Of a stretch of 64,000 nt of DNA, positions 2,620-57,212 are shown piece after piece (position 1 is the stretch's first letter; each line of letters starts with the position of its first letter). The DNA is from Ostreococcus lucimarinus. Lineage: Eukaryota. The stretch is taken from assembly GCA_000092065.1 (NCBI GenBank), contig CP000598.1; one strand, given 5' to 3'. The notes below the pieces were generated by a model. That model did no database searches and was not told where the DNA came from. It was given only the letters and a program-made list of their open reading frames with translations. The position numbers were made by a program, and so were the translations under genes.

Positions 2620-3166
2620 GAAGTGTTTTTGTCGTGCGTTCCTTATGCGGCAGGACTTAGAGGTGCGAATACTTGTGGATCCAAATGGGTAGATAAGGTA
2701 AAACCAGATGGTTCCCTTAAGTCTAGATTGGTAGTACAAGGATTCACCCAAGTTTGGTTGAAGGACTACCACGACACATTTAGTGCTTTTGCTTCCATGA
2801 CCACGTTTAGAATATTCATCAACGTTACGGCATCTTAAGATGGGACATCTTCACGAAAGATGTTTCCCAAGCTTAGACTTAGCTTAGAATTTAAGAGGAA
2901 CTTTTCAGGTCCAGCAGAAATTCACGAGTGTTCTAATCACTTCAACGTGATGTGAAGTCATATATCTTCAGAGTACATACAAGATTCCAGCAACCAGAGG
3001 TTGAATGAAGGTAATGTGAAGAGTGATGCGCTGCACACATTTCAAGAGTATCTCGAGAAGGTCGAAAGTGAGGAAACCCAACCTTTCAAAGGGATTGGTA
3101 CGTCTTCAGACTAGAGAAAGCTATAGCTCCTTGTAATCGACATCACTTATCGACGCACTAGGCCCG
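2620..3166 (+). mobile_element. Internally deleted remnant of the same Ty1/copia family: an RT fragment joined to the C-terminal end of pol, then a deleted 3' LTR.
   Basis: Translation CGSKWVDKVKPDGSLKSRLVVQGFTQVWLKDYHDTFSA (2677-2800) is near-identical to the RT segment of the intact pol at 53214-57212. Translation NFSGPAEIHECSNHFNVM...SDALHTFQEYLEKVESEETQPFKGIG (2900-3110) matches the pol C-terminus. Then come stop, the PPT-like ctagagaaagcta, and an LTR fragment ending at about 3166. Confidence 0.85.
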
Positions 3167-3527
3167 ATTGATCACAATTTATCAGGTATATCTCGCAGAA
3201 TCTGTCATTTATTATCAGGTGGAGGCAGCCAGATCACGCTGGTACACTGGTACCGAAAAAGCCTTCAGCAGGTGCTGCGGGCCTCTAGCCGGCGTTGCAT
3301 TGTCGCCCATCCTACCGCGTTGCACTGGTCGCTGTGAGCCGTCCGTGCGCGCGCCCACAGGTGTGCCGGTGGAATAACACCGATACCTTACCGACACACG
3401 TGCTCATCGATGTCGTCGCACGTAAAGAGCTTTTATTAAGACGAGTCGGCTGATTCTGCAACTCGCGGAACGAAACGTTTCGCGCACGAACGAGGGCTTT
3501 TTCGTCGCGAATTTCTCATCGCGCGGA

Positions 3528-9199: not shown

Positions 9200-9235
9200 C
9201 GCACCTCGAGGTGTCTATGAAGAACGCCGCCAGAG

Positions 9236-9448
9236 TACGATCTCCAGGCGTATTTCAGTCTGATGCTCGAAAATGGTGTACTTGCCGAGAACGCTTTGCT
9301 TCACAACTTTCTACCGGACCTCAATTTTGGTTTCACGTGTTCAAACTTTGAGCACCCAACGTCGACTAATATGGAAATTTCTGTCGATAGCGCTGACGAT
9401 CAAGATGTTCGCGCTTGGTTCGCGCGATGGTTTTACTCGCCGCTCTGA
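9236..9448 (+). pseudogene. Truncated duplicate of the 3' end of the 25206-25985 gene (segmental duplication, internal deletion).
   Basis: Translation MLENGVLAENALLHNFLPDLNFGFTCSNFEHPTSTNMEISVDS|DDQDVRAWFARWFYSPL is near-identical to the C-terminus of 25206-25985 minus about 45 aa. The downstream sequence continues the duplication into the GT90 gene. Confidence 0.8.
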
Positions 9449-9490
9449 AAGAATTCGGCAGTAGTTGTCGCTAGATCGTAATATTTAATA

Positions 9491-10696
9491 CTATACCATA
9501 CCTAAGGCTAGCTCATTCAGACGATGGGAAACGCCCTTGACGACGCGCTCGTACGTAAATTCTTGCATCAACGCGCGAGCATTTGCTGTGATATCACGCA
9601 ACTTCGTTAGCGATTCGCCATCGGTGTTCGCCACAATCTTCGTTTTTTCCACTAAATCGTGCAAATCTCCAGATATTCCGATGTAGTGTACTCCATCTAC
9701 CAGCTTGTCGCTGTAATAGTGCTTGAAATTTGACTTGACGAGGAACAGGACGCTCCCGCTTTCCATGCGCCAACGGTTTCCCCACGCGTCGACGTTTCCA
9801 TCGATTTCGAGGATACCTTTGTGCGTGATCCAATGCTGTTCCGATACGTGCGGGCTAATGCGTACATTTGTTTGTCCTTTACACGATTGTACCCTTCGCG
9901 TGATCTCGACGTCGAGCCAAGGAACATTTATGGATGATTGCACCGCTCGCACGCGCGGAAGTTCAACGCACGCGGTAACCCTTTCGTTCACGTCGACGCG
10001 AGCGGGTTCTTCTATTTCGCATTTTGTTGACATACCAGACGTCGAGCCTCTCCAGAATACGTCGGATTTGCGTTCATCAAACGGAATCTCACGTTCACGC
10101 AGATTCCGAAGCAACGGTTTGAACCCGTCGCGCTTGATGAAGTGGAAGTTTGGCGCGAGCACGACTGATTCGTCGGTGAAACAATCCACATTGATAGAAT
10201 GCGCCAGAATGAAAGTGTTCAAGGATTTCAATTCCCGTTTCAGCTCCCTCGGCATAGAGGCATCGTCGTCAATCACCCAAAGGAGTCGTAGAGCCACGTC
10301 GCTTCGTTCTCCTTGGTTCTGTCGCCGTTCCACAGCGACGTCTCGGAGAAACCGCAGGGCACTTTTAAAGTAGCTACGATTCAGCGGTTCACGCCTGCGT
10401 GCGACGAAGGTGTACGACGACGGCGAAGTCGCCTCCGGATGAATGGTGAAACACGCGACGTCTTTACCCAAGCCAAATGAACTGAACTTCAGCATTCGTT
10501 CCCTCACGTCGCCGCAGCAGTTCCGACAGTGCGTCCAAGCATCTTCTCGCATCCACATCTCGCTCAAATACTTCACCGAGCGCTCGCATCCGCGTGTTAT
10601 GAACTGCAAAGACAATACAAACTTCAACAACCAAAAAGCCAACAGCACGCGCAAACCGAGCCGACGTGCGGAGGTTTTCATGGCTGCGGTGGACAT
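9491..10696 (-). CDS. GT90-family glycosyltransferase (CAP10 / protein O-glucosyltransferase-like), membrane anchored. Copy 1.
   Basis: 401 aa. N-terminal TM LRVLLAFWLLKFVLSL; FWRGSTSGM; THKGILEIDGNVDAWGNRWRMESGSVLFLVKS...HYYSDKLVDGVHYIGISGDLHDLVEKTKI. These fit the Glyco_transf_90 pattern (FWRG ... KY.IDIDGN..S.R...L..SVV.K ... HY.P...DLSDL.EK). About 90% identical to 26028-27245. Confidence 0.75.
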   Translation of the reverse strand: MSTAAMKTSARRLGLRVLLAFWLLKFVLSLQFITRGCERSVKYLSEMWMREDAWTHCRNCCGDVRERMLKFSSFGLGKDVACFTIHPEATSPSSYTFVARRREPLNRSYFKSALRFLRDVAVERRQNQGERSDVALRLLWVIDDDASMPRELKRELKSLNTFILAHSINVDCFTDESVVLAPNFHFIKRDGFKPLLRNLREREIPFDERKSDVFWRGSTSGMSTKCEIEEPARVDVNERVTACVELPRVRAVQSSINVPWLDVEITRRVQSCKGQTNVRISPHVSEQHWITHKGILEIDGNVDAWGNRWRMESGSVLFLVKSNFKHYYSDKLVDGVHYIGISGDLHDLVEKTKIVANTDGESLTKLRDITANARALMQEFTYERVVKGVSHRLNELALGMV

Positions 10697-15522: not shown

Positions 15523-17895
15523 CTAATACCAGTAAAGACACTGCTGAAACATTTCCAACGTTTCCTCGTCGGCGTGAAAACGTTCCATACGTATTTCTTC
15601 GTGGCGATTTTTAACATCTTCAACCGCCGACCGTCGCCTGGAAGACAACGTCACGTAGTCGTAGTGCTTGGCGATAGTTTTCATCGCATCGTGACGTTTT
15701 GATCTTCTCTCGTTGATTTTGTCACTTCCAAGATTTGGGGCTTCGTGCTTTCCGGCTTGTTTCATGCTGCAAGCACAAAGTTCTAGATCGCCTCCATTTT
15801 CCGGTCGAGGGCATCTCGCGCGCTTTGTACCGATGCCCAAGGTTGTTTGCAATACAGCACTTATCCAAAAGTCTTCCGCATTGTAAAGTAAAGGAGGGGG
15901 CGCGCGAAACGCGGCCTGTAACCAGACCATCCTCCCAGCCCACAAATGACCTCCAAAATCGTATTCATCATCTTCGTCAAACGTATCAACCGGACCTTCT
16001 TTCCAGTGACCTCGCCAATCGAATTCTAAAAACTTTTCGTTCAAAAATCTACCATTTCTCGTCGCCAAAAAGCCTTCATCGACGACACGCAGCATGTTCT
16101 CAAAGTACCTCGATCCGAACATAACGTCATCATCCAAAACAATAAACGTTGCGTGTGGAGTCGTTTGTACGAACATCGGCGCGAGAAAGCGACCGTAATA
16201 ACCCGTTTCAACTTTAGAATGCACGTGATATACGTGTGGTGGAACACCCGACCAAGCCTCTGAGCTATTCCATCGATGAAGCGCGTCGCTAATATCCACG
16301 TGCTCCCCGTTTTGAACGACAACGATGGCAGTTCTTTTCGTCATCAGCGTCGTCTGTTTGCTTATCATTTTCATCACTTGTGTGATTGTTTTACGTTTCC
16401 AAACCGTCACGACGACCACATTCTCGTACGGCGCAGTGGAGTGTTCATTATGAAACGAAGACGATACTGGAAGTGTCTTTGGCGGCGGCGTTCTCAACAT
16501 TGTCTCGAGGATGCGCACGATGTTTCCAGCAGCATTCCCATCGCCATAAGTTTTCTTCGAGCCTGACATGGATCTATAAGAATCGGGATCTTTCAGCAAA
16601 GACGCCGCTTCGGTGTATATACTTTCTGCACCGTGACCAACTAGTTTTGCGGCGCCCGCGAGCACTCCTTCTGGTCTCTCTGTTGTGTCTCTGAGCACTA
16701 ACACCGGTTTTCCTAGAGTGACCGCTTCCTCTTGGATACCTCCCGAATCTGTCATGACGAAAAAACTCTCTTTCATCATGAATAATAAATCTGCATGGTC
16801 TAGAGGTGGTACTATCAGCAATCGCCGTAAGTGCGTAGTCGTTGGCGGCGCGTGGTCCGACTGTACAAGGCTGTGGAATGTATCAACGCCGAAGTGCTGT
16901 TCTGCTAAGTGCTTCACCATAGGGTTCAAGTGAATGGGATAAATCACGACGACGTCAGGGTATTCTTGCAGAAGCTTCTCTATGCTTGTGAAGATGTTGA
17001 GTATGGGTTCGCCAAGGTTTTCACGTCGATGAGCGGTGAGAAGTAACAGCCTCACGTCGCGCAGAGTGGATACAGTCTTCACGACTTTGGATAGCTCAAT
17101 CACTCGATCACTCGGTTCAGTCTTTAAAATTGCATATAGGGCATCGACAACAGTGTTACCGGTTGTAAACACATTCGTGCGTCTACCCTCGTCGTACAGA
17201 TTTTTTGCCGCGTGTTCGGTGGGTGCGAAGTGATACGTCGCCATAACTGAGATACACTGTCTATTGACTTCTTCGGGAAAGGGTGAGTAGATATCACGCG
17301 TACGAAGACCCGCTTCGATGTGTCCAACTGGTATTTTCAAGTAAAACGCCGCCAAAGACGTGATAAACGCTGTCGTTGTATCGCCCTGCACGAGCACCGC
17401 GTCTGGTTTTGACGAACGTAGCACGCCGTCTACCGCGCGCACCGCGCTCGATGTGAGCTCTGCGAGCTGTTGATTTGGCTTCATCAGCGCTAGCTCGTGT
17501 TGAATTTTATCTTGCAAGCTGAACTGGCGCAGAACTTGCTCAAGCATCTGTTTGTGTTGACCCGTGGAGATCAGTATCGCACTCAGAGTCGACGATCTGG
17601 CCACCGCTTGAATCACCGGAGCCATTTTCACAGCCTCTGGTCGCGTACCGAAGACAATCGCGATTTTGATTTCAGCAGAATAGGCCGTTCTGTCGAAACG
17701 TTCTGACTCGATATCTTTCATCGAGTCCAACGAGGGCGTGGGAGGATCGCCTTTTCGCGGCCAACCGGCATGTTTGTTCACCGATAGCAGGGCGGCGAAA
17801 CACAACGAGACTAGCGAGACTAACGAGACTAACGAGATCAGAGTTCTCGCTCTTCGGCGATCGAGGACGAGGATACTTTTTAACCGTCCCATCAA
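15523..17895 (-). CDS. Fusion protein: N-terminal signal anchor, a non-hydrolysing UDP-GlcNAc 2-epimerase (WecB/Epimerase_2) domain, and a C-terminal GT64-like (EXT C-terminal type, DDD) glycosyltransferase domain.
   Basis: 790 aa. TM LISLVSLVSLVSLCFAALL, encoded by a 9-nt x3 tandem cgagactaa. The epimerase domain has IAIVFGTRPEAVKMAPVI ... GHIEAGLRTRDIYSPFPEEVNRQCISVMATYHFAPTEHAAKNLYDEG, the canonical WecB motif. The C-terminal domain has FIVLDDDVMF ... FGGHLWAGRMVWL ... NAEDFWISAVL, co-linear with the GT64 motifs (vLSLDDD, LTgaAF.H, CEDI.MNFLV). Confidence 0.8.
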   Translation of the reverse strand: MMGRLKSILVLDRRRARTLISLVSLVSLVSLCFAALLSVNKHAGWPRKGDPPTPSLDSMKDIESERFDRTAYSAEIKIAIVFGTRPEAVKMAPVIQAVARSSTLSAILISTGQHKQMLEQVLRQFSLQDKIQHELALMKPNQQLAELTSSAVRAVDGVLRSSKPDAVLVQGDTTTAFITSLAAFYLKIPVGHIEAGLRTRDIYSPFPEEVNRQCISVMATYHFAPTEHAAKNLYDEGRRTNVFTTGNTVVDALYAILKTEPSDRVIELSKVVKTVSTLRDVRLLLLTAHRRENLGEPILNIFTSIEKLLQEYPDVVVIYPIHLNPMVKHLAEQHFGVDTFHSLVQSDHAPPTTTHLRRLLIVPPLDHADLLFMMKESFFVMTDSGGIQEEAVTLGKPVLVLRDTTERPEGVLAGAAKLVGHGAESIYTEAASLLKDPDSYRSMSGSKKTYGDGNAAGNIVRILETMLRTPPPKTLPVSSSFHNEHSTAPYENVVVVTVWKRKTITQVMKMISKQTTLMTKRTAIVVVQNGEHVDISDALHRWNSSEAWSGVPPHVYHVHSKVETGYYGRFLAPMFVQTTPHATFIVLDDDVMFGSRYFENMLRVVDEGFLATRNGRFLNEKFLEFDWRGHWKEGPVDTFDEDDEYDFGGHLWAGRMVWLQAAFRAPPPLLYNAEDFWISAVLQTTLGIGTKRARCPRPENGGDLELCACSMKQAGKHEAPNLGSDKINERRSKRHDAMKTIAKHYDYVTLSSRRRSAVEDVKNRHEEIRMERFHADEETLEMFQQCLYWY

Positions 17896-18039: not shown

Positions 18040-18312
18040 CCGCCGGGGTGTTTTTACCTCGTGCAACTTTTTTAGAAATCGATCACTTACAGCGACAAGC
18101 TAGTAGATGTGATACACTTCATCGGAATATCCGAAGATTTGCACGATTTGGCTGAGAAAACGAAGATTGTGGCGAACACCGATGGCGAATCGCTAACGAG
18201 GTTGCGTGAAATCACAGCAAATGCTCGCGCATTCATGCAAGAATTTACGTATGAGCGCGTCGTCACGGACGTTTCACATCGCCTGAATGAGCTAGCCCTA
18301 AGTATAGTATAG
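18040..18312 (+). pseudogene. Degenerate C-terminal fragment of a GT90 gene (duplicate of the 3' end of 9491-10696 / 26028-27245) in the opposite orientation.
   Basis: Translation ...LEID|DKLVDVIHFIGISEDLHDLAEKTKIVANTDGESLTRLREITANARAFMQEFTYERVVTDVSHRLNELALSIV matches the last ~70 aa of the GT90 paralogs, with an internal deletion after LEID. Confidence 0.8.
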
Positions 18313-18764
18313 TATCAGAAACAGAAACCTCCCGGCGACGTTTGTTCGCGAGCAAAGAAACGGCAACCTCACGAGCATCTTTGGCCACTTGAGCGCGCCA
18401 GTCTTCGTCGTCGCAAGCGGGAGCCGTCGTTGCCTCTGCTCCTCCCAGCGAGGCTGAAGATCGCTGAGAAGCCTTCTTACAACCTTTCCGTGCCGTCGAC
18501 ACGGTCGGAGACGCGCTTCGGCGCGCGCGAGGGTGCGTCATACGCGACAGAATCTGGCCCAAAAGTTAACGTGCCCATCGAGCTCCAACGGTCGTGTTCC
18601 GTCAACACCCACGCACAGAATTCAAACTTAAACGGTCGGATATCACGATACGCGGAAACATCGGTTGACTCCGCGCCGCCCGGACGCGCGCGCGGCGCGA
18701 AGTGGCGCGCGACGGCGCGACAAACGTCGACGTTAATTAAATTCATTATTTTACCCTCATACAT

Positions 18765-18860
18765 TATTTTCGAAATGCGAGCTATACCTAATACTATGCG
18801 ATCAATCGGGCCTGCGTCAATAAGTGATGATGATTACAAGTAGCTATCATTGATTAGTAC
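18765..18860. repeat. Divergent LTR-like fragment related to the copia LTR.
   Basis: gctatacctaatactatgcgatcaatcgggcctgcgtcaataagtgatgatgattacaa parallels the LTR start gctataccttatatgatggtgagcaatcgggcctagtgcgtcgataagtgatgataattacaa. Confidence 0.55.
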
Positions 18861-18882
18861 TCGATGGGCACGTTAACTTTTC

Positions 18883-19470
18883 GATTACGAAATATGCGAT
18901 GCTACGGCAGGGGGAGTAGCGCCCATCCCGAACACCACCATGGGAAACCCGCTATCGAGTTACACTAAATGAAAACTCAAATCTATTTTCACTTCGCGTA
19001 CGTACGCTAGGCGTGAGACTCTACACGGCGAGGTACGCTAAGTAAGATATTGAATACGATGTCCAAAGTATCGTCCCCACAGCTTCTTTGTATCGACCAG
19101 CATTTTCAATCCAGTTCAAGCGCGCTGCTTTGTTTGACGTGACGAATTGCGGCTTGAACGACACGAACATTCCATCGAAGGTTAGCGACGTTGTGTGACT
19201 CCATGTCCTCGATCGTTCGATCCCGTTGGTCTGGATGCTTCATCCAGAAAAGAGCCGTGGTTCGCGGCCATGCCGGATGCTCTCGTGCGGACGCTCTCGT
19301 GCGCACCATAGAACGCAGGTTCGGGTGGCACTTGCTCATCACGTGCCACAAGCCACAGGATTCAAAGCATGGTGGACTTTGATGCGTGAAACAGGTTCGT
19401 AGATGACAGCCGTTGTCACGAAGTCAAAGCTCTTTATCGGCGCACTTAAAGTGTATGCAGTAGACCAGAT
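18883..19470. repeat. Segmental duplicate equal to [22524-22880] joined directly to [24641-24850]. These are the flanks of the 22744-24342 gene, with the gene body absent.
   Basis: Near-identical strings run from cgattacgaaatatgcgat...ggatgcttcatccag (18883-19261 vs 22524-22879), then switch at the same point to aaaagagccgtggttcgcgg...aagtgtatgcagta (19262-19470 vs 24641-24850). Confidence 0.85.
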
Positions 19471-19954
19471 CCAAAAATAAACACAAGATAGTTTCGTCCT
19501 CGGAGCGACCTTCGGTGTAAAAGAATACAGACTGAGAGACTCACAGAACTAGCCTCTGACAGAACGTGGAGGGTAGAGGGGTCACCAGTGCTTTAACGAT
19601 CGAAAGACTTTGTCGAAGTGCCGCGTGTACATGAATTTCTGTGGTTTTATTCTCCCCGTTATCTCTGACGCGTGTCGGATCAATACCAGGTATGATATAT
19701 GGGTGAGTAATTTGTACATGAATACGGGAAGCTCGCCTAGGTTACCCCCGAAGGAGTAATCACTTTCGCGCCCCGCCGAACCGCCGTTCGTTTTCTGCGC
19801 GCCGGTGCGAGTGGCGTCAAAAGGCGCGGCGTCGCGTGGACATCGCGCGCAGCACTCGCGAACGCCCTCGAGGCGCGCGCGGTATTCGCGAGCATGTCGT
19901 CGAGATAATCTGCGAAAATCTAGACGCGCTCGACCGAGACGCCCGTCCGCCCGC

Positions 19955-21144
19955 ATGCGCATCCTTCTCACCGGTGGCGCCGGCTTCATCGGCTCGCACG
20001 TCGCCGAGCGCCTCGCGTCGAGGCATCCCGAGTACACGGTGCGCGCACGATTTCGACCCCGTGCGCGTGCGTCGAACAACGCACGGACTTTGCACCCATC
20101 TCTCGCGCGAACGACTGACCGCGAACGACTCGTCGCGCTCGACAGATTGTCATCCTGGACAAGCTCGACTATTGCTCGAGCTTGAAAAATCTCGAGCGCG
20201 CGAAAGAATGCGCGAACGTGCGGTTCGTCAAGGGCGATGTGCGTTCGTTCGATTTATTGAGTTACGTCTTGCAAAGCGAGCGCATCGACACCGTCATGCA
20301 CTTCGCCGCGCAGAGTCACGTGGACAACTCTTTCGGGAACTCGTACGAGTTCACGAAGAATAACATCGAGGGCACGCACGCGTTACTCGAGGCGTGCGTG
20401 CGAGCGCAGAAGACCGAAATTCGACGATTCCTGCACGTGTCCACGGATGAGGTATACGGGGAAAATCTCATGGATTCAAACACCGAGCACGCGTCGCTCC
20501 TGACGCCCACCAACCCGTACGCCGCGACCAAGGCGGGCGCGGAGATGCTCGTCATGGCGTATGGACGCTCGTACGGACTACCGTACATCATCACTCGCGG
20601 AAACAACGTGTATGGGCCGAATCAGTATCCAGAGAAGGCGATTCCAAAGTTTTCAATCCTCGCGAAACGCGGGGAAAAGATTTCGATACACGGCGACGGC
20701 GACGCGACGCGTTCGTACATGCACGTTGACGATGCGTCTTCGGCGTTCGATGTCATTCTCCACCGCGGGACGACGGCGCAGATTTATAACATCGGCTCGC
20801 GCGAAGAGCGGACGATCTTGTCCGTCGCTCGGGATGTCTGTAAGCTCCTCGATCGCGACCCGGAAACGACCATCGAGCACGTGAGCGATCGAGCCTTCAA
20901 CGACCGAAGATATTTCATCGATTGCTCAAAGCTTTTAGCGCTCGGATGGCGACAAGAAAAGTCCTGGGACGTCGGTCTCGCGGAAACCGTGCGTTGGTAC
21001 TCGAATAACGACTTGAGCGCCTACTGGGGCGAATTCTCACCTGCGTTGCGCCCGCACCCTTCGGCGAGCGCGGACGGTCGACGACGATCGCTCGAGTTTG
21101 ATTTCACAAACGAGCTTGATGATTGCACGACACTGGCTTTGTAA
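19955..21144 (+). CDS. dTDP/UDP-glucose 4,6-dehydratase (RmlB/RHM-N-domain type, extended SDR). Copy 1 has two exons: 19955-20038 and 20146-21144.
   Basis: Exon 1 is MRILLTGGAGFIGSHVAERLASRHPEYT. Exon 2 is IVILDKLDYCSSLKNLE...NVRFVKGDV...HFAAQSHVDNSF...YGPNQYPEKAIPKF...GDGDATRSYMHVDD, the textbook 4,6-dehydratase motifs including YxxxK and the YGPNQYPEKLIPKF box. A 107-nt GT...AG intron shifts the frame, so splicing is required. About 97% identical to copy 2 at 36260-37450. Confidence 0.8.
20039..20145 (+). other. Spliceosomal intron (GTGCGC...GACAG), 107 nt, in dehydratase copy 1.
   Basis: The insertion relative to all RmlB homologues lies exactly between HPEYT and IVVLDKL. It has GT/AG borders. 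Its length differs by 1 nt between the two paralogs while the flanking exons are conserved. Confidence 0.7.
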
Positions 21145-21149
21145 GTGTG

Positions 21150-21700
21150 AGTGATTGGAACTCCAGATTGTGGTTCAAATTGGTCCAATCCCGAGTCGAC
21201 GAAAGTCTTTTTCCAAGTTTTTTTCCAAGAATTATTTGCGTACATCATCAGCTTGCACTCGCCTCCCGGTTTGAGAGTCATGAAATATCCTTCACGGCGG
21301 GTTGTACATCGGCGATGTGATGCAGAACTCCGAAACTAAAAAGAGGATCAAAATGGTCGTGCATGAATTCATCGGTCTGTATATCTGCAACGCGCACCTC
21401 ACCATTGAGTTTGAACAGTTTGAGTCGCTTCTCAGCGAGTTCTACACTTCGCAAGGAAACGTCGATGCCTGTGTAAACCGCGCCAGCTTCAGTAAAACTT
21501 TGTGTCGCGGTCCCTATACCGCAACCAACCTCGAGAACAGATTGTTTTCGTACGCGTCGAGACTTGCGAATGCCAAAGTGTGGTTCTCGACGAAATATTT
21601 ACGCCGCGTCACTTCTTCAAAGTATTCCTTCGAGCCGAATGTTACAAGGGCGATCATCGTAAAACGTTTTCACGAACTCATTCGACTCGCGCATGGCGTC
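21150..21700 (-). pseudogene. Class I SAM-dependent methyltransferase remnant with frameshifts.
   Basis: The minus-strand translation gives LEVGCGIGTATQSF (motif I) ... FDLIFSFGVLHHIADVQPAVKDIS, then after a 1-nt frame slip MTLKPGGECKLMMYA (motif II/III region). Upstream is in a third frame. No intact ORF exists. Confidence 0.45.
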
Positions 21701-21887
21701 GCTCACGACCGGTGTACTTAATGTTAGTGCGCGTGTCAAGAGCGTTGTTGCGGTAGTTTCGACGCAGAGGAAAGCAGTGGTGAGTCAACACCGAGGCTGT
21801 GGTCCGCGGTTGCGTTCCTACGACATATACCTAACAAAGTACCAGGGATAATAAAGTCCAGAAAGAGACATGCTTTAAGAGAGTGGA

Positions 21888-22520
21888 GTGATCTTGGGCC
21901 AGTCGCCGTCTCTGACGTTGCAACGTCGCAGAGCGAAGATGGCTACCACTCGATCGATCTTGCAAACAACGCGCGCCAGATTCGTCGGTCTGGGCCGACT
22001 CGGACTATGTACGGCTCTCAAGTGTGAACAAGCTGATTGGGATATCGTTGGTTCGGATGTCTTTCCGGCGCACGTGGACAGCATCAACGAAATCACGCTT
22101 CGTTTGACTGAGCCAAGAGTCGAGGAAGCGCTTCGATCGAGCAAACATCTGCGCGCAACTTTAAAGCTGCGTGAAGTGATCGATCGCGTCGATATGGTCT
22201 TCATCCTCGTCGCCACGCCCACTGACTCTGGAGATCAAGCGTACGACACAAGCGCGCTCAGTCGGTTTTTTGAGTGATATTAGCGACTTGAACCCCGAGA
22301 ACAAACACTTGATGATTTGAGGCACGGTGTTACCTGGCTAGATCTCGATAGGTGTAAGGTATCCTACGTCGCATATGAATCGAATTGTCCTGTGGATATC
22401 ATCGAAGAGTCCCAGCTGCTCGAAATCGCGAAACGACTCGTGCGACGGGGGAAGAAAGTGACAGTTTTCGACCGGGTGGCGATTGTTCACTTAGTGCGAG
22501 GAACGTACGGGCAGTTGTTC
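21888..22520 (+). pseudogene. UDP-sugar (UDP-glucose/GDP-mannose/UDP-ManNAc) dehydrogenase-family remnant with a large internal deletion.
   Basis: The N-terminal fragment RARFVGLGRLGLCTALK...DMVFILVATPTDSGDQAYDTSAL fits the NAD-binding domain (GxGxxG ... dvifI.VpTP ... pDls). A separate downstream frame gives ESNCPVDIIEESQLLEIAKRLVRRGKKVTVFDRVA, the C-terminal UDP-binding domain pattern (ESPA.dIIe.L...GA.V..yDP.a). About 250 central residues are missing. Confidence 0.5.
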
Positions 22521-22743
22521 GATTACGAAATATGCGATACTACGGCAGGGGGAGTAGCGCCCATCCCGAACACCACCATGGAAAACCCGCTATCGAGTTA
22601 CACTAAATGAAAACTCAAATCTATTTTCACTTCGCGTACATACGCTAGGCGTGAGACTCTACATGGCGAGGTACGCCAAGTAAGATATTGAATACGATGT
22701 CCAAAGTATCGCCCCCACAGCTTCTTTGTATCGACCAGCATTT

Positions 22744-24342
22744 TCAATCCAGTTCAAGCGCGCTGCTTTGTTTGACATGACGAATTGCGGCTTGAACGAC
22801 ACGAGCATTCCATCGAAGGTTAGCAACGTTGTGTGACTCCATGTCCTCGATCGTTCGATCCCGTTGGTCTGGATGCTTCATCCAGTTGCTCATGAGTTCC
22901 ACAGCATGCTCGGCACTGTCGAAATACGTCACATGCGGGGTGGTGTAAAGGTCACCTAATGATACCCATTGTTTCAGCGCTTCAGGATCGCATGAATTTG
23001 GATCATGACATACCCCAGTATCGTCAAGACAGCAGAACTCCACTGCCTCAGCGTTTTCGTAAAAAGATGGTGAAGCACAAGGGACATTACCAGCTACTTT
23101 GTGAGGATAGCCACGGTTTTTTGAAAACTCATCGAGCATGAAAGTCAACGATGGCACGAAAAGGGGGACACCACTCGCGTAAAGTTCATGAAATGCGGAA
23201 CTCGGCATACTGTATGGGAAATATACTACGGCTTGCTCTGTTGCAAATTCCGAAGCGTGAGCAAAACTCGTTGGGCGACTTTTCATGGGAACTTGTGACT
23301 CCATAGTGCGCCCGAGGACTCGTATTCTATCAAATGTAATCGATATGCTTGAACTACCTTCGTTGTTCGACCCCCCCCACAAGATGAAGCATGACTCGTT
23401 CGTAAGTGTACGCGATGCGCCCAAACTCTCCAAATACTGTGTTGGCCATGTTATGAATAGACGTTCAGGTTCACGACATGTGTAGAACTTCATGTATGCC
23501 CGATCGTACTCGCTCCCAGCAAGAAGTATTGGCGCCTCGCGTAGAACGCGCATGAGGCTTTTACGTACAAATGACGTGTGATTTATCTTCGAATGAGCCA
23601 CCTGGTGATCAAAACGATGCGTTGTGCGTACTATCAATTTATGTGGGGCAATCTTGTTTAATAGAAGACAAAGGGCGGTAGGAAAGTCCGCCCAGAGCAC
23701 ATGGAACGTAGATAGCATCTCGCTAGCCTCAGCTGCGAAATCATCCAACCATTTCTCGTCTGCTGGATCGATAGCCATGGGAAAACCTCTTACACGCTGT
23801 GTCAATCGATTCAAAGCCTCAGATAATGCATGATCTCTTACGCAAGGAGCAGAATCGAGGACTTTCTCGTACCAAATAATGCCTCCACACACGATATTTT
23901 CGCGACGAACTCCAGCGTTATGAAGTTGCATCGCTGTGTCTTTCGCGGTACCACCATGCCAACTTAAAACCAAGACGCGGGTGCTCTGTGTATCCAAATT
24001 AGCTGACGCTTGTAATCTTGCAGGTGATTCTTCATATCGTTCCATCTTGAAATGTTCATCGTTCCTCTCTTCGACATTTGCGGTTTTGTAGGTTTCGTTA
24101 TGTGTGAGCTCTAAAAATCTTGCTCGGTGATTTTGTTGTCGTCTTTGCTCCGGTGATGGATGTGGTGTGATACTTTTAAATCTGCTGTCACCAATATCGA
24201 ACAAGAACAGTCTCCAAAGCAACACGGCCACAACCGCAAACAGAATGACCGTTCGGCGAGCCATAGTACCGGAATCGCAAGCTACTTTCAGTAGCATGTC
24301 GAAGCGCAACTCCAAGAGCGTTCGAACGTGAATCGTATTCAC
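22744..24342 (-). CDS. Putative GT-B-fold glycosyltransferase (GT1/GT4-like C-terminal motif), membrane anchored.
   Basis: 532 aa. TM VILFAVVAVLLWRLFLF. The C-terminal region AVVYFPYSMPSSAFHELYASGVPLFVPS resembles the GT4 C-terminal sugar-donor binding pattern. It is distantly similar to 28783-30459. Confidence 0.55.
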   Translation of the reverse strand: MNTIHVRTLLELRFDMLLKVACDSGTMARRTVILFAVVAVLLWRLFLFDIGDSRFKSITPHPSPEQRRQQNHRARFLELTHNETYKTANVEERNDEHFKMERYEESPARLQASANLDTQSTRVLVLSWHGGTAKDTAMQLHNAGVRRENIVCGGIIWYEKVLDSAPCVRDHALSEALNRLTQRVRGFPMAIDPADEKWLDDFAAEASEMLSTFHVLWADFPTALCLLLNKIAPHKLIVRTTHRFDHQVAHSKINHTSFVRKSLMRVLREAPILLAGSEYDRAYMKFYTCREPERLFITWPTQYLESLGASRTLTNESCFILWGGSNNEGSSSISITFDRIRVLGRTMESQVPMKSRPTSFAHASEFATEQAVVYFPYSMPSSAFHELYASGVPLFVPSLTFMLDEFSKNRGYPHKVAGNVPCASPSFYENAEAVEFCCLDDTGVCHDPNSCDPEALKQWVSLGDLYTTPHVTYFDSAEHAVELMSNWMKHPDQRDRTIEDMESHNVANLRWNARVVQAAIRHVKQSSALELD

Positions 24343-25205
24343 ATATATTCGTGTTCAAGACTACGTACGTGCCGTACCGCGAGTCGCTTCAACGCGTGCC
24401 ACAATCGCAAGCGCCACACACTCGAGACAATTCCCGCACATTTTTTGAGGAGCTTTTTAATCGAGTTTGGTGTTGTGTCTATACATGGACAGTCACACTT
24501 TTCCCAAAATTAGCCCTAAAATGTGGAGAGCTCGAATTAAACGTTCCGTTTCGATGATGATGACAAAATTAGTCGAAGGAAAAAACGCCCGAACAAATCA
24601 TACACATACAAATCATATACATCGTACACATACAAAAAAGAGCCGTGGTTCGCGGCTATGCCGGATGCTCTCGTGCGCACCATAGAACGCAGGTTTGGGT
24701 GGCACTTGCTACTTGCTCATCACGCGCCACAAACCGCAGGGTTCAAAGCATGGTGGACTTTGATGCGTGAAACAGGTTCGTAGATTCCAGCCGTTGTCAC
24801 GACCTCAAAGCTCTTTATCGACGCACTTAAAGTGTATGCAGTATGATATTAGGGTGAGTAATTTATACATGAAATTTATCTCAACTTCGTGCGAGATCCG
24901 AGGAAACGACGAGCACGGTGGCTAAGATGTGAAAGATCTGTGATTATATCATGGATAGATATTAAATCAAAAGATCTGGCCACCAGCGCATCAGACACGC
25001 GGTGAGTTGGTGACAGCGTTGAAACGTGAACATGGTTGAGCTTACCTCGCGTAGCTTGATAACGGGTTGCCAGCAGAAGTATTTGGTTCTTCGTTAGGTA
25101 CTTTGTATGCTCCGTAGGTAAACATACGCCCGTAAGCGCGGCGTACGAGCTCGATGATGGCGGGTCGATCGTGATGTTCCGGACGTCGTACCTCTCGAAA
25201 CGACG

Positions 25206-25985
25206 ATGGGCACGAGAACGGACATCGTTTCGAGAGTGTGCGATGCGACGTCGTTACCGAAAAATGTTTACACGAGAAACGGCGGAAAAGCGACGAAAAA
25301 TAGTAAGTGGGCGTCGCTTTCGCGAGCTAAACTCGATGTGGTGGAGGACTTGATGCTTCACGGAGTCGGACCCGTGGTCTGGATCGACCTCGACACGCTC
25401 GTTTTCGTGGACTTGGCGCGCGCGTTTCAGCGCGGCGCGTCGACGTGGTTAGTAGGTTATCAGAGAGGAATGCAGTGTACCGGCTTGAAGAGTTGCGTTG
25501 GGTCACACTTTCGTTCCGTGCGTCCGGAGTTTGACGTGCTCGGCGACTTGTGGTCGCTCGATTTAGCCGCAATAGAGAAAGTGAGAGATTACGAACGCCG
25601 ATGGGTGTCGTCGCGATGGGTAAGAAAGCCGCCAAAGTACGATCTCCAGGCGTATTTCAGTCTCATGCTCGAAAATGGTGTACTGGCCGAGAACGTTTTG
25701 CTTCACAACATTCTACCGGACCTCAATTTTGGTTTCACGTGCTCAAACTTTGAGCACCCAACGTCGACTAATATGGAAATTTCTGTCGATAGCGACGACG
25801 CACAGCGTCTGAGGTGCCCTATTCCAAAAGGCGTGAAAATGTCACCGCGAGTAGGAACTCTTTCGTTCACCGCGTGGTCGTTTCAAAAGATGTTTTTGGA
25901 TGAAGAAAAGCCGACGTTTGATTCGCTTTCTGACGATCAAGATGTTCGCGCTTGGTTCGCGCGATGGTTTTACTCGCCGCTCTGA
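25206..25985 (+). CDS. Stand-alone paralog of the DxD-type N-terminal domain of 6042-8318. Probably 5'-truncated.
   Basis: 259 aa and co-linear with residues ~150-400 of the 6042-8318 protein. The homology continues upstream of the annotated Met (DVVPLETT vs GVIPLKTT) until an in-frame TGA at 25155-25157. So either this copy is truncated or the call starts internally. Confidence 0.5.
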   Translation: MGTRTDIVSRVCDATSLPKNVYTRNGGKATKNSKWASLSRAKLDVVEDLMLHGVGPVVWIDLDTLVFVDLARAFQRGASTWLVGYQRGMQCTGLKSCVGSHFRSVRPEFDVLGDLWSLDLAAIEKVRDYERRWVSSRWVRKPPKYDLQAYFSLMLENGVLAENVLLHNILPDLNFGFTCSNFEHPTSTNMEISVDSDDAQRLRCPIPKGVKMSPRVGTLSFTAWSFQKMFLDEEKPTFDSLSDDQDVRAWFARWFYSPL

Positions 25986-26027
25986 AAGAATTCGGCAGTA
26001 GTTGTCGCTAGATCGTAATATTTAATA

Positions 26028-27245
26028 CTATACCATACCTAAGGCGAGCTCATTCAGACGATGGGAAACGCCCTTGACGACGCGCTCGTACGTAAATTCT
26101 TGCATCAACGCGCGAGCATTTGCTGTGATATCACGCAACTTCGTTAGCGATTCGCCATCGGTGTTCGTGATAATCTTCGTTTTTTCCACTAAATCGTGCA
26201 AATCTCCAGATATTCCGATGTAATGTATCCCATCTACCAGCTTGTCGCTGTAATAGTGCTTGAAGTTTGACTTGACGAGGAACAGGACGCTCCCGCTTTC
26301 CATGCGCCAACGGTTTCCCCACGCGTCGACGTTTCCGTCGATTTCGAGGATACCTTTGTGCGTGATCCAATGCTGTTCCGATACGCGCGGGCTAATACGT
26401 ACATTCTTTTGTCCTCTACACGATTGTACCCTTCGCGTGATCTCGAGGTCGAGCCAAGGAACATTTATGGATGATTGCACCGCTCGCACGCGCGGAAGTT
26501 TAACGCACGCGGTAACCCTTTCGTTCCCGTCGACGCGAGTGGACTCTTCTACTTCGCATTTTGTTGACATACCGGACGTCGAGCCTCTCCAGAACACGTC
26601 GGATTTGCGTTCATCGAACGGAATCTCGCGTTCACGCAGGTTCCGAAGGAACAGTTTGAACCCGTCGCGCTTGATGAAGTGGAAGTTTGGCGCGAGCACG
26701 ACTGATTCGTCGGTGAAACAATTCGCATTGATAGAGTGCGCCAGGATGAAAACATTCAAGGATTTCAGCTCCCGTTGCAGCTTCCTCGGTAGAGACGCGT
26801 CGTCGTCAATCACCCATAGGAGTCGTATAGCTACGCCGCTTCGTTCTCCGCGATTCTTCCGCTGTTCCGAGGCGACGTCTCGGAGAAACCGCAGGGCACT
26901 TTTAAAGTAGCTACGATTCAGCGGTTGACGCCTACGTGCGACGAAGGTGTACGAAGACGGGGAAGATGCTTCCGGATGAAAGGTGAAACACGCGACGTCT
27001 TTGCCCAAGCCACGTAAACTGGATTTCAGCATTCGTTCCCTCACGTCGCCGCAGCAGTTCCGACAGTGCGTCCAAGCGTCTTCTCGTATCCAAAGTGCAC
27101 TGAAACTACCCAGCAAGTCCGCGATCGTGCGCGTGACGATCATGTATGATGACGAGAAACAAAAGCAGAGCAATAGAAGCAAACCAACTCGTCGCGCTCG
27201 TGTCTTCGCCATCGGCCCGCGTGTACGAAAGGAACAAACGTCCAA
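26028..27245 (-). CDS. GT90-family glycosyltransferase (CAP10/POGLUT-like). Copy 2.
   Basis: 405 aa with the same motifs as 9491-10696 (FWRGSTSGM, ILEIDGNVDAWGNRWRMESGSVLFLVKS, HYIGISGDLHDLVEKTKI). N-terminal TM RVGLLLLLCFCFSSSYMIV. Confidence 0.75.
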   Translation of the reverse strand: MDVCSFRTRGPMAKTRARRVGLLLLLCFCFSSSYMIVTRTIADLLGSFSALWIREDAWTHCRNCCGDVRERMLKSSLRGLGKDVACFTFHPEASSPSSYTFVARRRQPLNRSYFKSALRFLRDVASEQRKNRGERSGVAIRLLWVIDDDASLPRKLQRELKSLNVFILAHSINANCFTDESVVLAPNFHFIKRDGFKLFLRNLREREIPFDERKSDVFWRGSTSGMSTKCEVEESTRVDGNERVTACVKLPRVRAVQSSINVPWLDLEITRRVQSCRGQKNVRISPRVSEQHWITHKGILEIDGNVDAWGNRWRMESGSVLFLVKSNFKHYYSDKLVDGIHYIGISGDLHDLVEKTKIITNTDGESLTKLRDITANARALMQEFTYERVVKGVSHRLNELALGMV

Positions 27246-34940: not shown

Positions 34941-36259
34941 CGCGACGGCTGCGTGTCGTCCGCCGTCGCGCGCGATCGCGTCGTCCGGTTTCGCGTCGAC
35001 TCGAGGCCCGCCGTCTCGCGAGCCGCGCCGACGACTGACTCGCGCGCGTTTTGAATTCGTCCGTCGATTTCCGGAATTCCAAAATTCCACGTCAAAATTT
35101 TGCGCCGCGCCGCGTCCGGCTGGCGCCGCACCACTCCGCACGGGCGATCGCGCCCGGAAAGCGATCGGATCGTCGGGAAACTGATCAATAAACGACGTGC
35201 AATATTTTGATAGCATTAATATATTATTAAATATGATAATTCAGATCCGTCTGGTCATCGCAAACCCTGGATCCTTCGGACTGTGCTGATTCGACCCCCT
35301 GGAAATTTCAGACAGTTTCCCAAACGAGGCCCGTTTTTTCAAACGCCACCAGTGAGTTTTTTGAGCCCATTTGACCGACCGTGACTCAAGAACGACCCCC
35401 TCATTGTGTACATTCACTACTCTACGCGCGCGACGCGCCCGCGAACGCGCGAGAAAAGCGCACGGCGCGGTCGTACACGAACTTTTTTCTCTTCGCAGCG
35501 ACTTTTACGCGTCGAGACGTCCCAGCGACGGCTGGGGATCGCCATTTGATGCGATTTTGGACGATTTTGGCATTCGAGTCCCACGTGCTAAGTTGAGTCA
35601 TGACTCGTCAAATTTAGTAAAATTCAACACGCTTTTGCGGCGCCGTGAACGCGCACTTCGAAATAAAAACAAATTCACATCGCGTGAATCATTTGAGGTA
35701 AGCTTGAACGTTCAGAATACTCCGTGAAACTGCCTTGAACACCTTCGATTAAGATGTCAAACGTGTCGAATTTGGTACTTTTTTGTGAATTTGGGATATT
35801 TCACGCCGCGTTATCTCTCAATCGCGCGCTTTCCCCGCACGTCGGTTGACCTACACGCTCGTGAAATGTCTGAATGACCCCCTGTTTCAGGGGATCTGGA
35901 AACTGTCTGAAATTTCCAGGGGGTCGAATCCGCAAAGTCCCGGAAATTTCGAAAATTTGGATTCCTGCGCAGCGGGTGTCCCGCGATGATGATCGAAATC
36001 GTCTCGCATCATCGTATTCAGAGATGTATGAAATCTATGAAAATACGAAATGTGATTTAAATCAGTTTTTCCCGACGCCGCACCGACGTTCGTTTCTGCG
36101 CGCGCCGGTGCGCGCGGCGCCAATAGGCGAGGCGTCGCGTCGAGATCTCGTGAGCGTCGTCATCGAGCGCCCTCGAGGCGCGCGCGGTATTCGCGAGCAT
36201 GTCGTCGAGATAATCTCCGAAAATCTAGACGCGCTCGACCGAGACGCCCGTCCGCCCGC

Positions 36260-37450
36260 ATGCGCATCCTTCTCACCGGTGGCGCCGGCTTCATCGGCTC
36301 GCACGTCGCCGAGCGCCTCGCGTCGAGGCATCCCGAGTACACGGTGCGCGCACGATTTCGACCACGTGTGCGTGCGTCGAACAACGCACGGACTTTGCAC
36401 CCATCTCTCGCGCGAACGACTGACCGCGAACGACTCGTCGCGCTCGGACAGATTGTCGTCCTGGACAAGCTCGACTATTGCTCGAGCTTGAAAAATCTCG
36501 AACGCGCGAAAGAATGCGCGAACGTGCGGTTCGTCAAGGGCGATGTGCGTTCGTTCGATTTATTGAGTTACGTCTTGCAAAGCGAGCGCATCGACACCGT
36601 CGTGCACTTCGCCGCGCAGAGTCACGTGGACAACTCTTTCGGGAACTCGTACGAGTTCACGAAGAATAACATCGAGGGCACGCACGCGTTACTCGAGGCG
36701 TGCGTGCGAGCGCAGACGACCGAAATTCGACGATTCCTGCACGTGTCCACGGATGAGGTATACGGGGAAAATCTCATGGATTCAAACACCGAGCACGCGG
36801 CGCTCCTGACGCCCACCAACCCGTACGCCGCGACCAAGGCGGGCGCGGAGATGCTCGTCATGGCGTACGGACGCTCGTACGGATTGCCGTACATCATCAC
36901 TCGCGGAAACAACGTGTACGGGCCGAATCAGTATCCAGAGAAGGCGATTCCAAAGTTTTCAATCCTCGCGAAACGCGGGGAAAAGATTTCTATACACGGC
37001 GACGGCGACGTGACGCGTTCGTACATGCACGTCGACGATGCGGGTTCGGCGTTCGACGTCATTCTCCACCGCGGAACGCCGGCGCAGATTTATAACATCG
37101 GCTCGCGCGAAGAACGGACGATCTTGTCCGTCGCTCGGGATGTCTGTAAGCTCCTCGATCGCGACCCGGAAACGACCATCGAGCACGTGAGCGATCGAGC
37201 CTTCAACGACCGAAGATATTTCATCGATTGCTCAAAGCTTTTAGCGCTCGGATGGCGACAAGAAAAGTCCTGGGACGTCGGTCTCGCGGAAACCGTGCGT
37301 TGGTACTCGAATAACGATTTGAGCGCGTACTGGGGCGAATTCTCACCCGCGTTGCGCCCGCACCCTTCGGCGAGCGCGGATGGGCGACGACGATCGCTCG
37401 AGTTTGATTTCACGAATGATTCTGACGATCGCGCGACACCGACTTTGTAA
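36260..37450 (+). CDS. dTDP/UDP-glucose 4,6-dehydratase, copy 2. Here the 108-nt intron equivalent (36344-36451) is in frame and lacks stops.
   Basis: 396-aa continuous ORF. Apart from the 36-aa insert VRARFRPRVRASNNARTLHPSLARTTDRERLVALGQ between HPEYT and IVVLDKL it matches RmlB-type dehydratases end to end. About 97% nt identity to 19955-21144. Confidence 0.85.
   Translation: MRILLTGGAGFIGSHVAERLASRHPEYTVRARFRPRVRASNNARTLHPSLARTTDRERLVALGQIVVLDKLDYCSSLKNLERAKECANVRFVKGDVRSFDLLSYVLQSERIDTVVHFAAQSHVDNSFGNSYEFTKNNIEGTHALLEACVRAQTTEIRRFLHVSTDEVYGENLMDSNTEHAALLTPTNPYAATKAGAEMLVMAYGRSYGLPYIITRGNNVYGPNQYPEKAIPKFSILAKRGEKISIHGDGDVTRSYMHVDDAGSAFDVILHRGTPAQIYNIGSREERTILSVARDVCKLLDRDPETTIEHVSDRAFNDRRYFIDCSKLLALGWRQEKSWDVGLAETVRWYSNNDLSAYWGEFSPALRPHPSASADGRRRSLEFDFTNDSDDRATPTL
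36344..36451 (+). other. Intron (GT...AG, 108 nt) of dehydratase copy 2. It is in frame, so a retained-intron isoform would still be translatable.
   Basis: Positional homolog of the frame-breaking 107-nt intron in copy 1. The 36 extra residues are absent from the dehydratase family consensus. Confidence 0.65.
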
Positions 37451-53023: not shown

Positions 53024-53196
53024 TGCGAGCTATACCTTATATGATGGTGAGCAATCGGGCCTAGTGCGTCGATAAGTGATGATAATTACAATCAGTTGTG
53101 GTTAGTTCATTAATGAGTGTTAACTCGTCAATTAGTCCCGCTAGGTTACTAGGGGAAGCTACTATATTTCATATTTTACTCTTCAGATTTCTAACA
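53024..53196 (-). repeat. 3' LTR (in element orientation) of the copia element.
   Basis: Identical to 58579-58751. Confidence 0.9.
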
Positions 53197-53213
53197 CACC
53201 TCCTTAGCTTTCT

Positions 53214-56200: not shown

Positions 56201-57212
56201 TCCTTTCTGCTACGCCATTTTGCCACGGATGTCCTACATCACTCTTGGAAAATACCATTCCATGATCATCACAGAATTTTCCAAATGTAGACTTGATATC
56301 GCCACCACCATCGGAGTGTATCCGCTTGAGTCGAATTTCTCCATCTTGATGGTATCTTCTGCGGTGGTCTTGTATTAACGCTAGATCGCGCTTAAATTCC
56401 TTAAGCGCATGTGTCAGTGACCTTTCCTCAACGGTGGACGGCCGATTGCTCTCTACGGGGTAGACCAGCTGGAATCTGGTATACTCATCTGTAACGGTCA
56501 AACATGCCTTTTGATCTACAATCTTACAAACCATAGAACCTCTTGGCGGTCCGAAAGTCACGTCCATGTGGACAATTTCAAACGGTTTTGTACATCGCTT
56601 GGTACTCCTCTTACCGTGATTCGTTTGTCTTGTATGACCTATCTTGCATGTGACGCAATTATCGGCAGCATTATTCAACTTTGCTTGTAGCTCGTCCAGA
56701 GGTTTGTCACTTGTTATCCAACTATTGTTGAATGCAGTAAGTAATGTATTACTTGACACATGGCCAAGTGTATCATGTATTAACGTCGGTATCCAGAATA
56801 TGGGCCGTTTTGACGATATATCTATCACCGGCAATCCATCGTGACGTCGACGAACATTAACATCATGATATTTTCCATCTTCATCTGGTAATTTGATACT
56901 TCCGCCGGAGTCATTTAGGCTAATCGGGTAACCTGTGCATGATAATATTCCGGCTCCTGGAAGATCGGCTCCAGGGGCACAGTTTGCCTCGAAATGGAAT
57001 TCAAAATGTTTTCCTTCCGTGTCAACTAGATCAACCTTTGCAACTCCTGATTTGGTCACTACCGTAGTGCCGTTGATAGAGGTCAAGATTTCGTTTCCTC
57101 GAGACTTCACGTTGTGCAACTTTAGTGCATCATTTATTACACTCACACACGCTCCACTGTCGACCAGTAAAGTATTTTTGTTGCCTAGATGATATGTCTC
57201 GAGGATTATCGG
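53214..57212 (-). CDS. Copia Pol (protease, integrase, RT, RNaseH), in the same reading frame as gag directly downstream of the gag TGA.
   Basis: Translation immediately after the gag stop reads PIILETYHLGNKNTLLVDSGACVSVINDA... (protease DSGA). Integrase has HDTLGHV...CVTCKIGK and D..E. RT has YVDDLLI-like VLVDDLLITA. The C-terminus ends KGIGKPSD. Confidence 0.85.
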   Translation of the reverse strand, partial: PIILETYHLGNKNTLLVDSGACVSVINDALKLHNVKSRGNEILTSINGTTVVTKSGVAKVDLVDTEGKHFEFHFEANCAPGADLPGAGILSCTGYPISLNDSGGSIKLPDEDGKYHDVNVRRRHDGLPVIDISSKRPIFWIPTLIHDTLGHVSSNTLLTAFNNSWITSDKPLDELQAKLNNAADNCVTCKIGHTRQTNHGKRSTKRCTKPFEIVHMDVTFGPPRGSMVCKIVDQKACLTVTDEYTRFQLVYPVESNRPSTVEERSLTHALKEFKRDLALIQDHRRRYHQDGEIRLKRIHSDGGGDIKSTFGKFCDDHGMVFSKSDVGHPWQNGVAERTNQALKIIAKKLLIASGVPSEFWVYAMKYAATVRNITGVKVHNKLQSPYYEVFGHGVDIQVLHPFGCKAYMARNVIAQNLSNQHPASRPDWCVSRFPVWFIGYSSVTLHPKKYVVVLSNSILKRQGSAPGYVQETSELIFDHENYVNRPALNNAGSVNAQNGEHPGLTGDRTELTDNSILPPELVILPPELSDRRDLDDWLNDLLDSQKEDQGYKSESDCEDDDLDEDYPQSGGEAALNNAGSALNNASEPFPALNNAEAALNNAGSALNNASDVVPALNNANAGLVEDFLEFARERTRMDQSSLQDKYPGWGPSGFSPEILEEVEGGVDAENNADVGTDQPTDDIEHLVNHFKENGRVSEDELKKQVIYLTCKYSHIQLQGGSYGDKTVKLNPALNNADSTNRAAHSVLATAVAKGEEYGKIIDESSVDFSESRAKELNGLLETTLMEVSIVEAGDANICGSKWVDKVKPDGSLKSRLVVQGFTQVWLKDYHDTFSAVASMTTFRILINLAAILGWDIFTIDVSQAYTQGELLDDIYVKAPRSHPLPKGMVYKLRRPLYGTKQAGRCWYLHVTKTLRSLGLNQLCKDSCLFVKMSNSKPFMIISVLVDDLLITAENDEVVKQFHKEFSRIYKVSQFERIKVYNGIHIKRLGKNCYTLNQEYSIAQFLAKCPVQDINACNSPLLPSDTFVLAKEDDTDAVDRMKRTTYQQVLGSLNWFNTATRPDLAVVCSLAGRVASNPTHKQFSALCRAVGYLKRNPNIPLTYNGAECNGIVRLAGFTDSDWAGQKLSLNSKDRCGRKSTSGYISFSCGPTNWKSKLQGIPATSSAQAEFMAMYEAAKDLFFQILLFRELGFKLSRVPLFCDNTTAIRQAMETMSSKSNKHMEIRYSWIQHYAHREGIIQPFNIGSSHNLADMLTKILPNKKNFSGPADVHECSNHFNVMLSHISSKDIRDFINQRLSEGMVKSDALHTFQEYLEKVESEEIQPFKGIGKPSD

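Follow-up and report, generated by a model that had tools for sequence, protein, structure and literature searches.

The small outlier chromosomes (SOCs) of the Mamiellales are the closest described setting for the locus analyzed here. In Ostreococcus tauri, the sister species of O. lucimarinus, duplications, translocations and "massive rearrangements of small repeats" that recall chromothripsis are described as making the outlier chromosome hypervariable (PMC5498103), and this chromosome is also described as rearranging as cells become virus-resistant (PMC5082852). Chromosome 18 of Ostreococcus lucimarinus has been published as a 149-kb chromosome with 53% GC that is rich in sugar-metabolism genes (PMC3491373). 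We analyzed the telomere-proximal 64 kb of this small outlier chromosome in O. lucimarinus CCE9901 (hereafter, the window). In it, a short, incomplete duplicate (18880-19722) lies a few kilobases from a locus (22518-24873) that holds an intact gene for a protein of predicted GT-B glycosyltransferase fold. We think that the short copy is probably a non-functional, derived relic of a partial duplication of that locus, which was copied as a contiguous piece and then lost most of the gene by deletion.

The window fits the described class well. It starts at a true chromosome end, with the telomere repeat (CCCTAAA)x21 at 1-148, and has a GC content of 52.6%. With O. tauri chromosome 19 and O. lucimarinus chromosome 18 as described, it shares GC below that of the rest of the genome, the packing with sugar-nucleotide and glycosyltransferase genes and transposons, and the internal duplications, deletions and translocations (PMC5498103, PMC5082852, PMC3491373). 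Its carbohydrate genes include an epimerase, two copies of a dehydratase, relics of a UDP-glucose dehydrogenase (UGDH), GT90 sequences and the GT-B gene, and there is a copia element. Published work on SOCs, most of it on O. tauri, has dealt with rearrangements of one to 100 kb, tandem 2.5-kb repeats and karyotype changes, whereas the present case is one relic of less than 1 kb in O. lucimarinus, resolved to the base, junctions included. The relic is real but ordinary for chromosome 18, the plasticity of which is already published.

Self-BLAST of the window, base-by-base comparison and a more sensitive alignment match the short copy to the donor locus in three collinear segments. Segment 1 (18880-19247) is the same as 22518-22885 at 359 of 368 bases (97.6%; E = 0) and contains the tails of a UGDH relic and of the GT-B gene, with the convergent intergenic DNA between them. 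The UGDH piece (18880-18972, plus strand), located by a tblastn search of the window with a wild UGDH, comprises the last 30 codons and the stop and copies 22518-22610 at a 3638-bp offset. The GT-B piece (19106-19247, minus strand) comprises the last 46 codons and the stop and copies 22744-22885. Segment 2 (19248-19462) corresponds to 24636-24843, non-coding DNA 339-546 bp upstream of the GT-B gene ATG, with 11 substitutions in 197 aligned bases and two indels of 14 and 7 bp (about 94% identity; E about 1e-60). Beyond a 227-bp single-copy indel relative to the long copy (19463-19689, with GTA on both flanks), a sensitive alignment finds segment 3 (19690-19722), which matches 24841-24873 at 30 of 33 bases and at which homology ends. 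Because this third match is collinear with the other two, the true span of the short copy is 18880-19722.

The two main segments are joined at 19247|19248. The 1,750 bp that lie between their counterparts in the long copy (22886-24635) hold 471 GT-B codons and 338 bp of upstream DNA and are absent from the short copy; the right end of this interval sits in a CA/TA-rich tract (24593-24636). A 14-bp tandem duplication at 19279-19292 (GCTCTCGTGCGGAC / GCTCTCGTGCGCAC) is seen in the alignments in the short copy only. For the 227-bp insert, no terminal inverted repeats were detected; in a search for its source, neither the window nor the fetched loci contained another copy, and viral contigs gave no match. 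An earlier note on this DNA had described a gene whose flanks are fused in a nearby duplicate, like a filled and an empty site. Both comparisons agree with it in substance, although its figures were 3-14 bp off: it placed the junction at 19261/19262 and the missing interval at 22881-24640, and it counted 45 retained codons of the gene tail where 46 complete codons and the stop remain.

The filled gene is the ancestral state and the short copy the derived one, because the left breakpoint falls within the GT-B open reading frame (ORF), 46 codons before the stop, because the part so cut off is a conserved C-terminal helix, and because the ends of the interval show neither a target-site duplication nor terminal inverted repeats and the interval occurs only once in the window. 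Fourteen environmental contigs (L001-L012, L015 and L016) also carry the gene, and the orthologous locus is filled in every one of them. The intact gene (22744-24297, minus strand) encodes a 517-aa product from its ATG, with an N-terminal membrane anchor and a GT-B fold, that is 100% identical to XP_001422316.1 of CCE9901 (from the 149,386-bp chromosome 18 record). The gene is single-copy in the window, and one CCE9901 protein is found in its 90% cluster. The last 46 residues align unbroken in ten homologues at 46-63% identity, with W, P, R, M, Q, A, I and R invariant.

The name glycosyltransferase, which the earlier note had given to this gene, holds at the level of predicted fold only. A Pfam search of the protein gave nothing at E <= 0.01, and a PDB sequence search gave nothing at E <= 1. 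An AlphaFold2 model made from ten homologues has a mean pLDDT of 74 (80-95 in the core) and predicts the N-terminal membrane anchor, then a disordered stem, then an architecture of two Rossmann-like domains with a C-terminal helix that crosses back; residues 476-516 form this long, confidently modeled helix. In a Foldseek search of the PDB, all top matches were GT-B enzymes, with 7qsg_A best (E = 4e-5), followed by BshA, MshA, TreT, MurG and plant UDP-glycosyltransferases, at TM-scores of only 0.3-0.5. The protein is thus like GT-B glycosyltransferases (GT4, GT1 or GT28-like) in its predicted fold, its C-terminal helix and a GT4-like FPYSMPSSAFHELYASGVP stretch, and differs from them in the missing sequence matches and the low TM-scores.

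Comparison with the wild haplotypes bears on the age of the relic. Against the long copy of the window, the two halves diverge by 2.4% and 5.6% (p = 0.058), and we considered different ages for them. However, this inequality is not significant and disappears when haplotype L004 is taken as the reference, from which the halves differ by 8 substitutions in 368 bases and 6 in 197 (Fisher p = 0.57); segment 2 has 11 in 197 against the long copy of the window. L004 is without the 7-bp ACTTGCT duplication and has four states in common with the relic. In segment 1, two of the nine differences are common to the full-length gene of L015 and one further difference is common to L004 and L006; the two found in L015 are the substitutions closest to the internal junction and include the one that changes alanine 513 to valine (A513V). 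Thus, the two halves are best taken to be of one age. The relic has diverged by 2-3%, and the wild long copies differ among themselves by under 1.1%; the relic is thus older than the diversity among the wild long copies.

The edges of the relic carry marks of DNA repair. At its left junction is a 22-nt filler (18860-18881) that repeats 18561-18582 exactly in reverse complement; its last 2 nt (TT) are at the same time the first 2 nt of the short copy. Separated from the filler by one base is a truncated long terminal repeat (LTR) fragment (18775-18858) of the copia element at 53024-58754. Further left, 18441-18770 matches DNA beside a pogo-type element of a wild contig, and a GT90 3' fragment (18087-18315) is an inverted copy of 26025-26253 and 9488-9716. 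A templated inverted filler is a signature of alternative end joining or of replicative template switching, and it points to an end-joining-type or template-switch repair junction at the left edge. The relic shares with polymerase-theta-type alternative end joining and with replicative template switching the short inverted filler, copied from about 280 bp away, and the 2-nt overlap. Its internal junction has no filler and, as in templated-insertion end joining, is free of repeats and has imperfect microhomology only. Unlike described end-joining scars, the pathway here is read from the scar alone, and the event is old (2-3% divergence). The earlier note had singled out this internal junction as a place where microhomology or short direct repeats might be found; on inspection, it has only an imperfect 5/7 match (CATCCAG / CATACAA).

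Two other origins for the joined structure were considered and rejected. Unequal crossing-over between long direct repeats does not apply, as no such repeats flank the interval. A spliced or retro-copied origin does not fit the ends of the interval, which are not GT...AG on either strand (plus, TTGCTC...ATACAA; minus, TTGTAT...GAGCAA).

We postulate that the relic would have arisen in two steps. First, a break between the epimerase and dehydratase genes would have received a copy of at least 2.36 kb of the donor locus. Second, 1,750 bp would have been lost by a non-homologous or microhomology-assisted deletion, that is, by end joining. The copy would also have acquired the 14-bp tandem duplication and the 227-bp indel. 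Of the two origins that the earlier note had offered, the clean deletion that follows a segmental duplication is supported, either as such or as an equivalent event of non-contiguous copying.

The alternative that fares best is possible, but we consider it clearly less probable. A single repair or replication event, such as template switching of the type of microhomology-mediated break-induced replication (MMBIR) or chromothripsis-like rejoining, could have stitched the segments together with a 1.75-kb forward jump, and a full-length duplicate would never have existed. Several features of the locus agree with such an event. The relic is one of at least five unrelated fragments that make up a 1.7-kb patchwork (the others are the GT90 3' piece, the pogo-adjacent piece, the truncated copia LTR and single-copy DNA), its left junction has the templated inverted filler, its halves have diverged equally, and the rearrangements of the O. 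tauri outlier chromosome have been described as recalling chromothripsis (PMC5498103). However, the three segments keep the order and orientation that they have in the donor, which is obtained most simply from a contiguous copy that is later deleted. Moreover, plain internal deletions are directly visible in the same DNA, with 50 and 94 bp missing from wild haplotype L016 and the middle missing from the UGDH relic, and the internal junction is without filler. We therefore prefer a contiguous copy followed by deletion.

Some points weigh against this preference. No intermediate, that is, no full-length second copy at the 18.9-kb position, was found, the order of events being inferred, and stitching in a single step yields the same end product. 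The 227-bp indel may be a gain in the short copy or a loss from the long copy. The search for a donor was confined to the 64-kb window, and a closer donor could be present on the remainder of chromosome 18. The lack of function, too, is read from the content of the relic, and the evidence from metagenomes consists of one exact-match scan and one scan read among the matches listed.

The relic most likely does nothing now, since it retains only a helix fragment (46 of the 517 GT-B codons), a pseudogene tail and non-coding DNA, and since it is absent beside the same dehydratase block in wild contigs. The GT-B tail reads as the C-terminal part of an 81-aa ORF (19106-19351), which is probably spurious; an exact look-up of this ORF found no counterpart on record. 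A513V is the sole amino-acid change in the retained tail, and the allele is known from wild full-length genes too. It is very unlikely that the relic has been kept as a regulatory module or small ORF for the neighboring dehydratase gene. The copied upstream DNA could act as an enhancer or promoter, for example: the dehydratase gene starts near 19958, and about 500 bp before this start there are now 215 bp from the upstream region of the GT-B gene. However, the same dehydratase block is found in L001 and L007 without the relic, and indels are accumulating in the relic. Its coding tail and non-coding part are substituted at similar rates (3 in 142 bp and 6 in 226 bp in segment 1), and Rfam and tRNA scans of the region gave no RNA family and no tRNA.

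An even slimmer chance attaches to the second origin that the earlier note had raised, in which the short copy would be the ancestral empty site and 22886-24635 a mobile or cassette-like insert that brought in the gene body. The junction does look clean, and two small deletions in L016, with ends within 0-7 bp and 11-18 bp of short-copy boundaries, could be a hint of preferred break points. However, the left boundary of the supposed insert lies inside an ORF, and the tail left outside it is a conserved structural part of the protein. No target-site duplication is present at the ends of the interval (the junction reads CATCCAG|AAAAGAG, and the donor ends read CATCCAG|TTGCTC and CATACAA|AAAAGAG). 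A repeat search of 22700-24900 gave no pair of terminal inverted or long terminal repeats with its members at 22886 and 24635. Self-BLAST gave no second copy of the interval within the window. The interval encodes a host protein of GT-B fold and has none of the hallmarks looked for; all 14 wild haplotypes are filled and none is empty at the locus; and the sequence taken for the empty site is a mosaic, with a filler at one of its junctions. As far as sequence evidence can go, the interval is therefore rejected as an insertion unit.

A genuine filled/empty pair is found in the wild contigs. A 3,368-bp PIF/Harbinger element is present in L001 (6742-10109) and missing at about 9865 of L007. It encodes a DDE_Tnp_4 transposase and a 411-aa ORF and has a TTA target duplication (3 bp) and GGCCGACTAAGAG terminal inverted repeats. 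It sits in a copy of a copia LTR in one wild haplotype only and is not in the window. The relic and its donor resemble this pair in the clean presence or absence of a kb-sized block between related sequences. In contrast to the Harbinger element, 22886-24635 has no target-site duplication, terminal inverted repeats or transposase, and it begins within a host ORF.

An assembly artefact, in which reads from the long locus would have been mis-assembled into a chimeric or collapsed short copy, is highly improbable: the junction of the short copy appeared in no independent assembly or metagenome contig (exact-match scan; matches listed), but the short copy is set apart from the long one by 9 plus 11 substitutions, a duplication of 14 bp, an indel of 7 bp and an insert of 227 bp, and several of its states recur as wild alleles in L004 and L015. 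The variants private to the short copy mean that reads with them must stem from a separate locus, and the marks found in both halves (9 of 368 and 11 of 197 bases substituted, the 14-bp duplication and the 227-bp indel) are those of a paralogue and make assembly collapse unlikely. The CCE9901 genome was finished with Sanger reads.

The relic lies just outside a block that is common to environmental, O. lucimarinus-like contigs. This 5.4-kb block (19774-25171) is 98.9-99.8% identical between the window and these contigs; twelve environmental contigs align over it, and all stop being collinear at exactly its two end points. Upstream of 19774, L001 (over 6.5 kb) and L007 (over 0.5 kb) have other DNA and no short copy. 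The possibility that the short copy is a simple insertion beside the LTR, relative to L007, was rejected, as the LTR piece is inverted relative to the block in L007. An exact-match scan with the 22-mer that spans the internal junction gave no match in Joint Genome Institute (JGI) metagenome contigs or viral contigs; each half of this 22-mer is invariant in the twelve wild haplotypes. A peptide scan with the junction-spanning 81-aa ORF gave only long copies among the matches listed. Nor did an independent CCE9901 contig cover the relic: a contig with the epimerase gene reaches only about 294 bp upstream of it and so ends well before the relic, and a look-up with the dehydratase gave only wild L007. 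Since the relic is missing in L001 and L007 and its junction is unmatched in the metagenome scans, it lies in DNA that varies between strains and may be an uncommon feature or one confined to the CCE9901 lineage.

Haplotype L016 has two deletions in this block. One removes 50 bp (about 22462-22511 of the window) between imperfect CAGTT(T/GT)TCGA repeats. The other removes 94 bp (about 24524-24617), which are replaced by an 8-nt filler, AGTAGTAG. The right edge of the 50-bp deletion (22512-22522) overlaps the left boundary of the relic (22518), and the right edge of the 94-bp deletion (24618) is 11-18 bp from the internal breakpoint of the relic. By a rough estimate, the probability of this coincidence by chance is about 0.005. 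The edges may mark fragile sites that have been used again, or their closeness may be a coincidence.

The surroundings of the relic are in a similar state, and the view of the earlier note that this chromosome end is a zone of duplication and decay is supported by the neighboring tail-only, middle-less and duplicated fragments and matches the published pattern of SOCs. The other duplications that it had named are also real by self-BLAST: a GT90 region (9220-10555 and 25622-27092; 94-96% identity), the dehydratase region (19774-21144 and 36076-37450; 95.8%) and the GT90 fragment. The internally deleted UGDH relic at 21939-22610 (plus strand), from which the tail in the short copy derives, joins residues about 77-212 to residues 390-473; residues about 212-390 are lost, and the relic is kept in this form in wild contigs. 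A second UGDH relic (25045-25188, minus strand) consists of a tail of 48 codons, at a position where wild haplotypes have a complete gene. A full UGDH copy (XP_001422305.1) is present elsewhere on chromosome 18 of CCE9901.

The earlier note had gone further and proposed that this zone generates new glycosyltransferase combinations. The relic itself, with only a probably dead gene tail, does not show this, but a separate chimera lends the proposal indirect support. In contigs from two independent metagenomes (L019, 162-549; L020, 72-459), a 5' module of the GT-B gene is joined in frame to an NAD-dependent epimerase. The module is 388 bp long, corresponds to 24444-24058 of the window at 92.5% identity, and comprises 147 bp of upstream DNA and 80 codons with the membrane anchor; at its junction the two sequences overlap by 11 bp. 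The same epimerase has another N-terminus in wild L004, where its C-terminal 317 residues are identical to a partial CCE9901 model (XP_001422347.1).

Three structures end within about 15 bp of one point (19774; 36068-36076): the dehydratase duplication, the 5.4-kb block shared with the wild contigs (L001 and L007), and the flank specific to CCE9901. The three upstream contexts are unrelated.

We speculate, with considerable doubt, that templated end joining at re-used fragile sites serves to reshuffle defined modules of Golgi sugar enzymes on the virus-immunity chromosome, and that the relic is a by-product of such a diversity-generating process and not of plain decay. The speculation arises from the L016 deletion edges, the shared end point at 19774 and the 388-bp module, with promoter and membrane anchor, on the epimerase, taken together. 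The relic alone carries little weight, as one more, probably dead, fragment on a hypervariable chromosome linked to virus resistance. Its value is that of a base-resolved example of chromosome change, with repeat-free deletion junctions, a templated inverted filler and transposon fragments at the joins, near several other relics that keep only a gene tail or have lost the middle of a gene. If these signatures and the re-use of break points hold across many strains, they would indicate the repair pathway behind the plasticity of outlier chromosomes and would show how new membrane-anchored chimeras of sugar enzymes originate.

Other features of the window concern genes near the relic and the source of its neighboring LTR fragment. 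The two dehydratase copies (19958-21144 and 36260-37450) are 95.8% identical. The 36-kb copy has one 396-aa ORF through what seems to be an in-frame intron stretch, and the 19.9-kb copy shifts frame there; the functionality of both hinges on splicing. Upstream of the relic, residues 97-464 of a 790-aa ORF (15523-17895) form a UDP-GlcNAc 2-epimerase domain, after which about 320 residues have no Pfam match; the ORF may encode a fusion enzyme. The copia element (53024-58754, minus strand) is of the Ty1/copia type and has a 1,310-aa pol ORF with rve and RVT_2 domains. Its 176-bp LTRs are 100% identical, which suggests a recent insertion. This region has low GC and a strong AT skew, and a second truncated piece of the LTR is present at 3123-3197.

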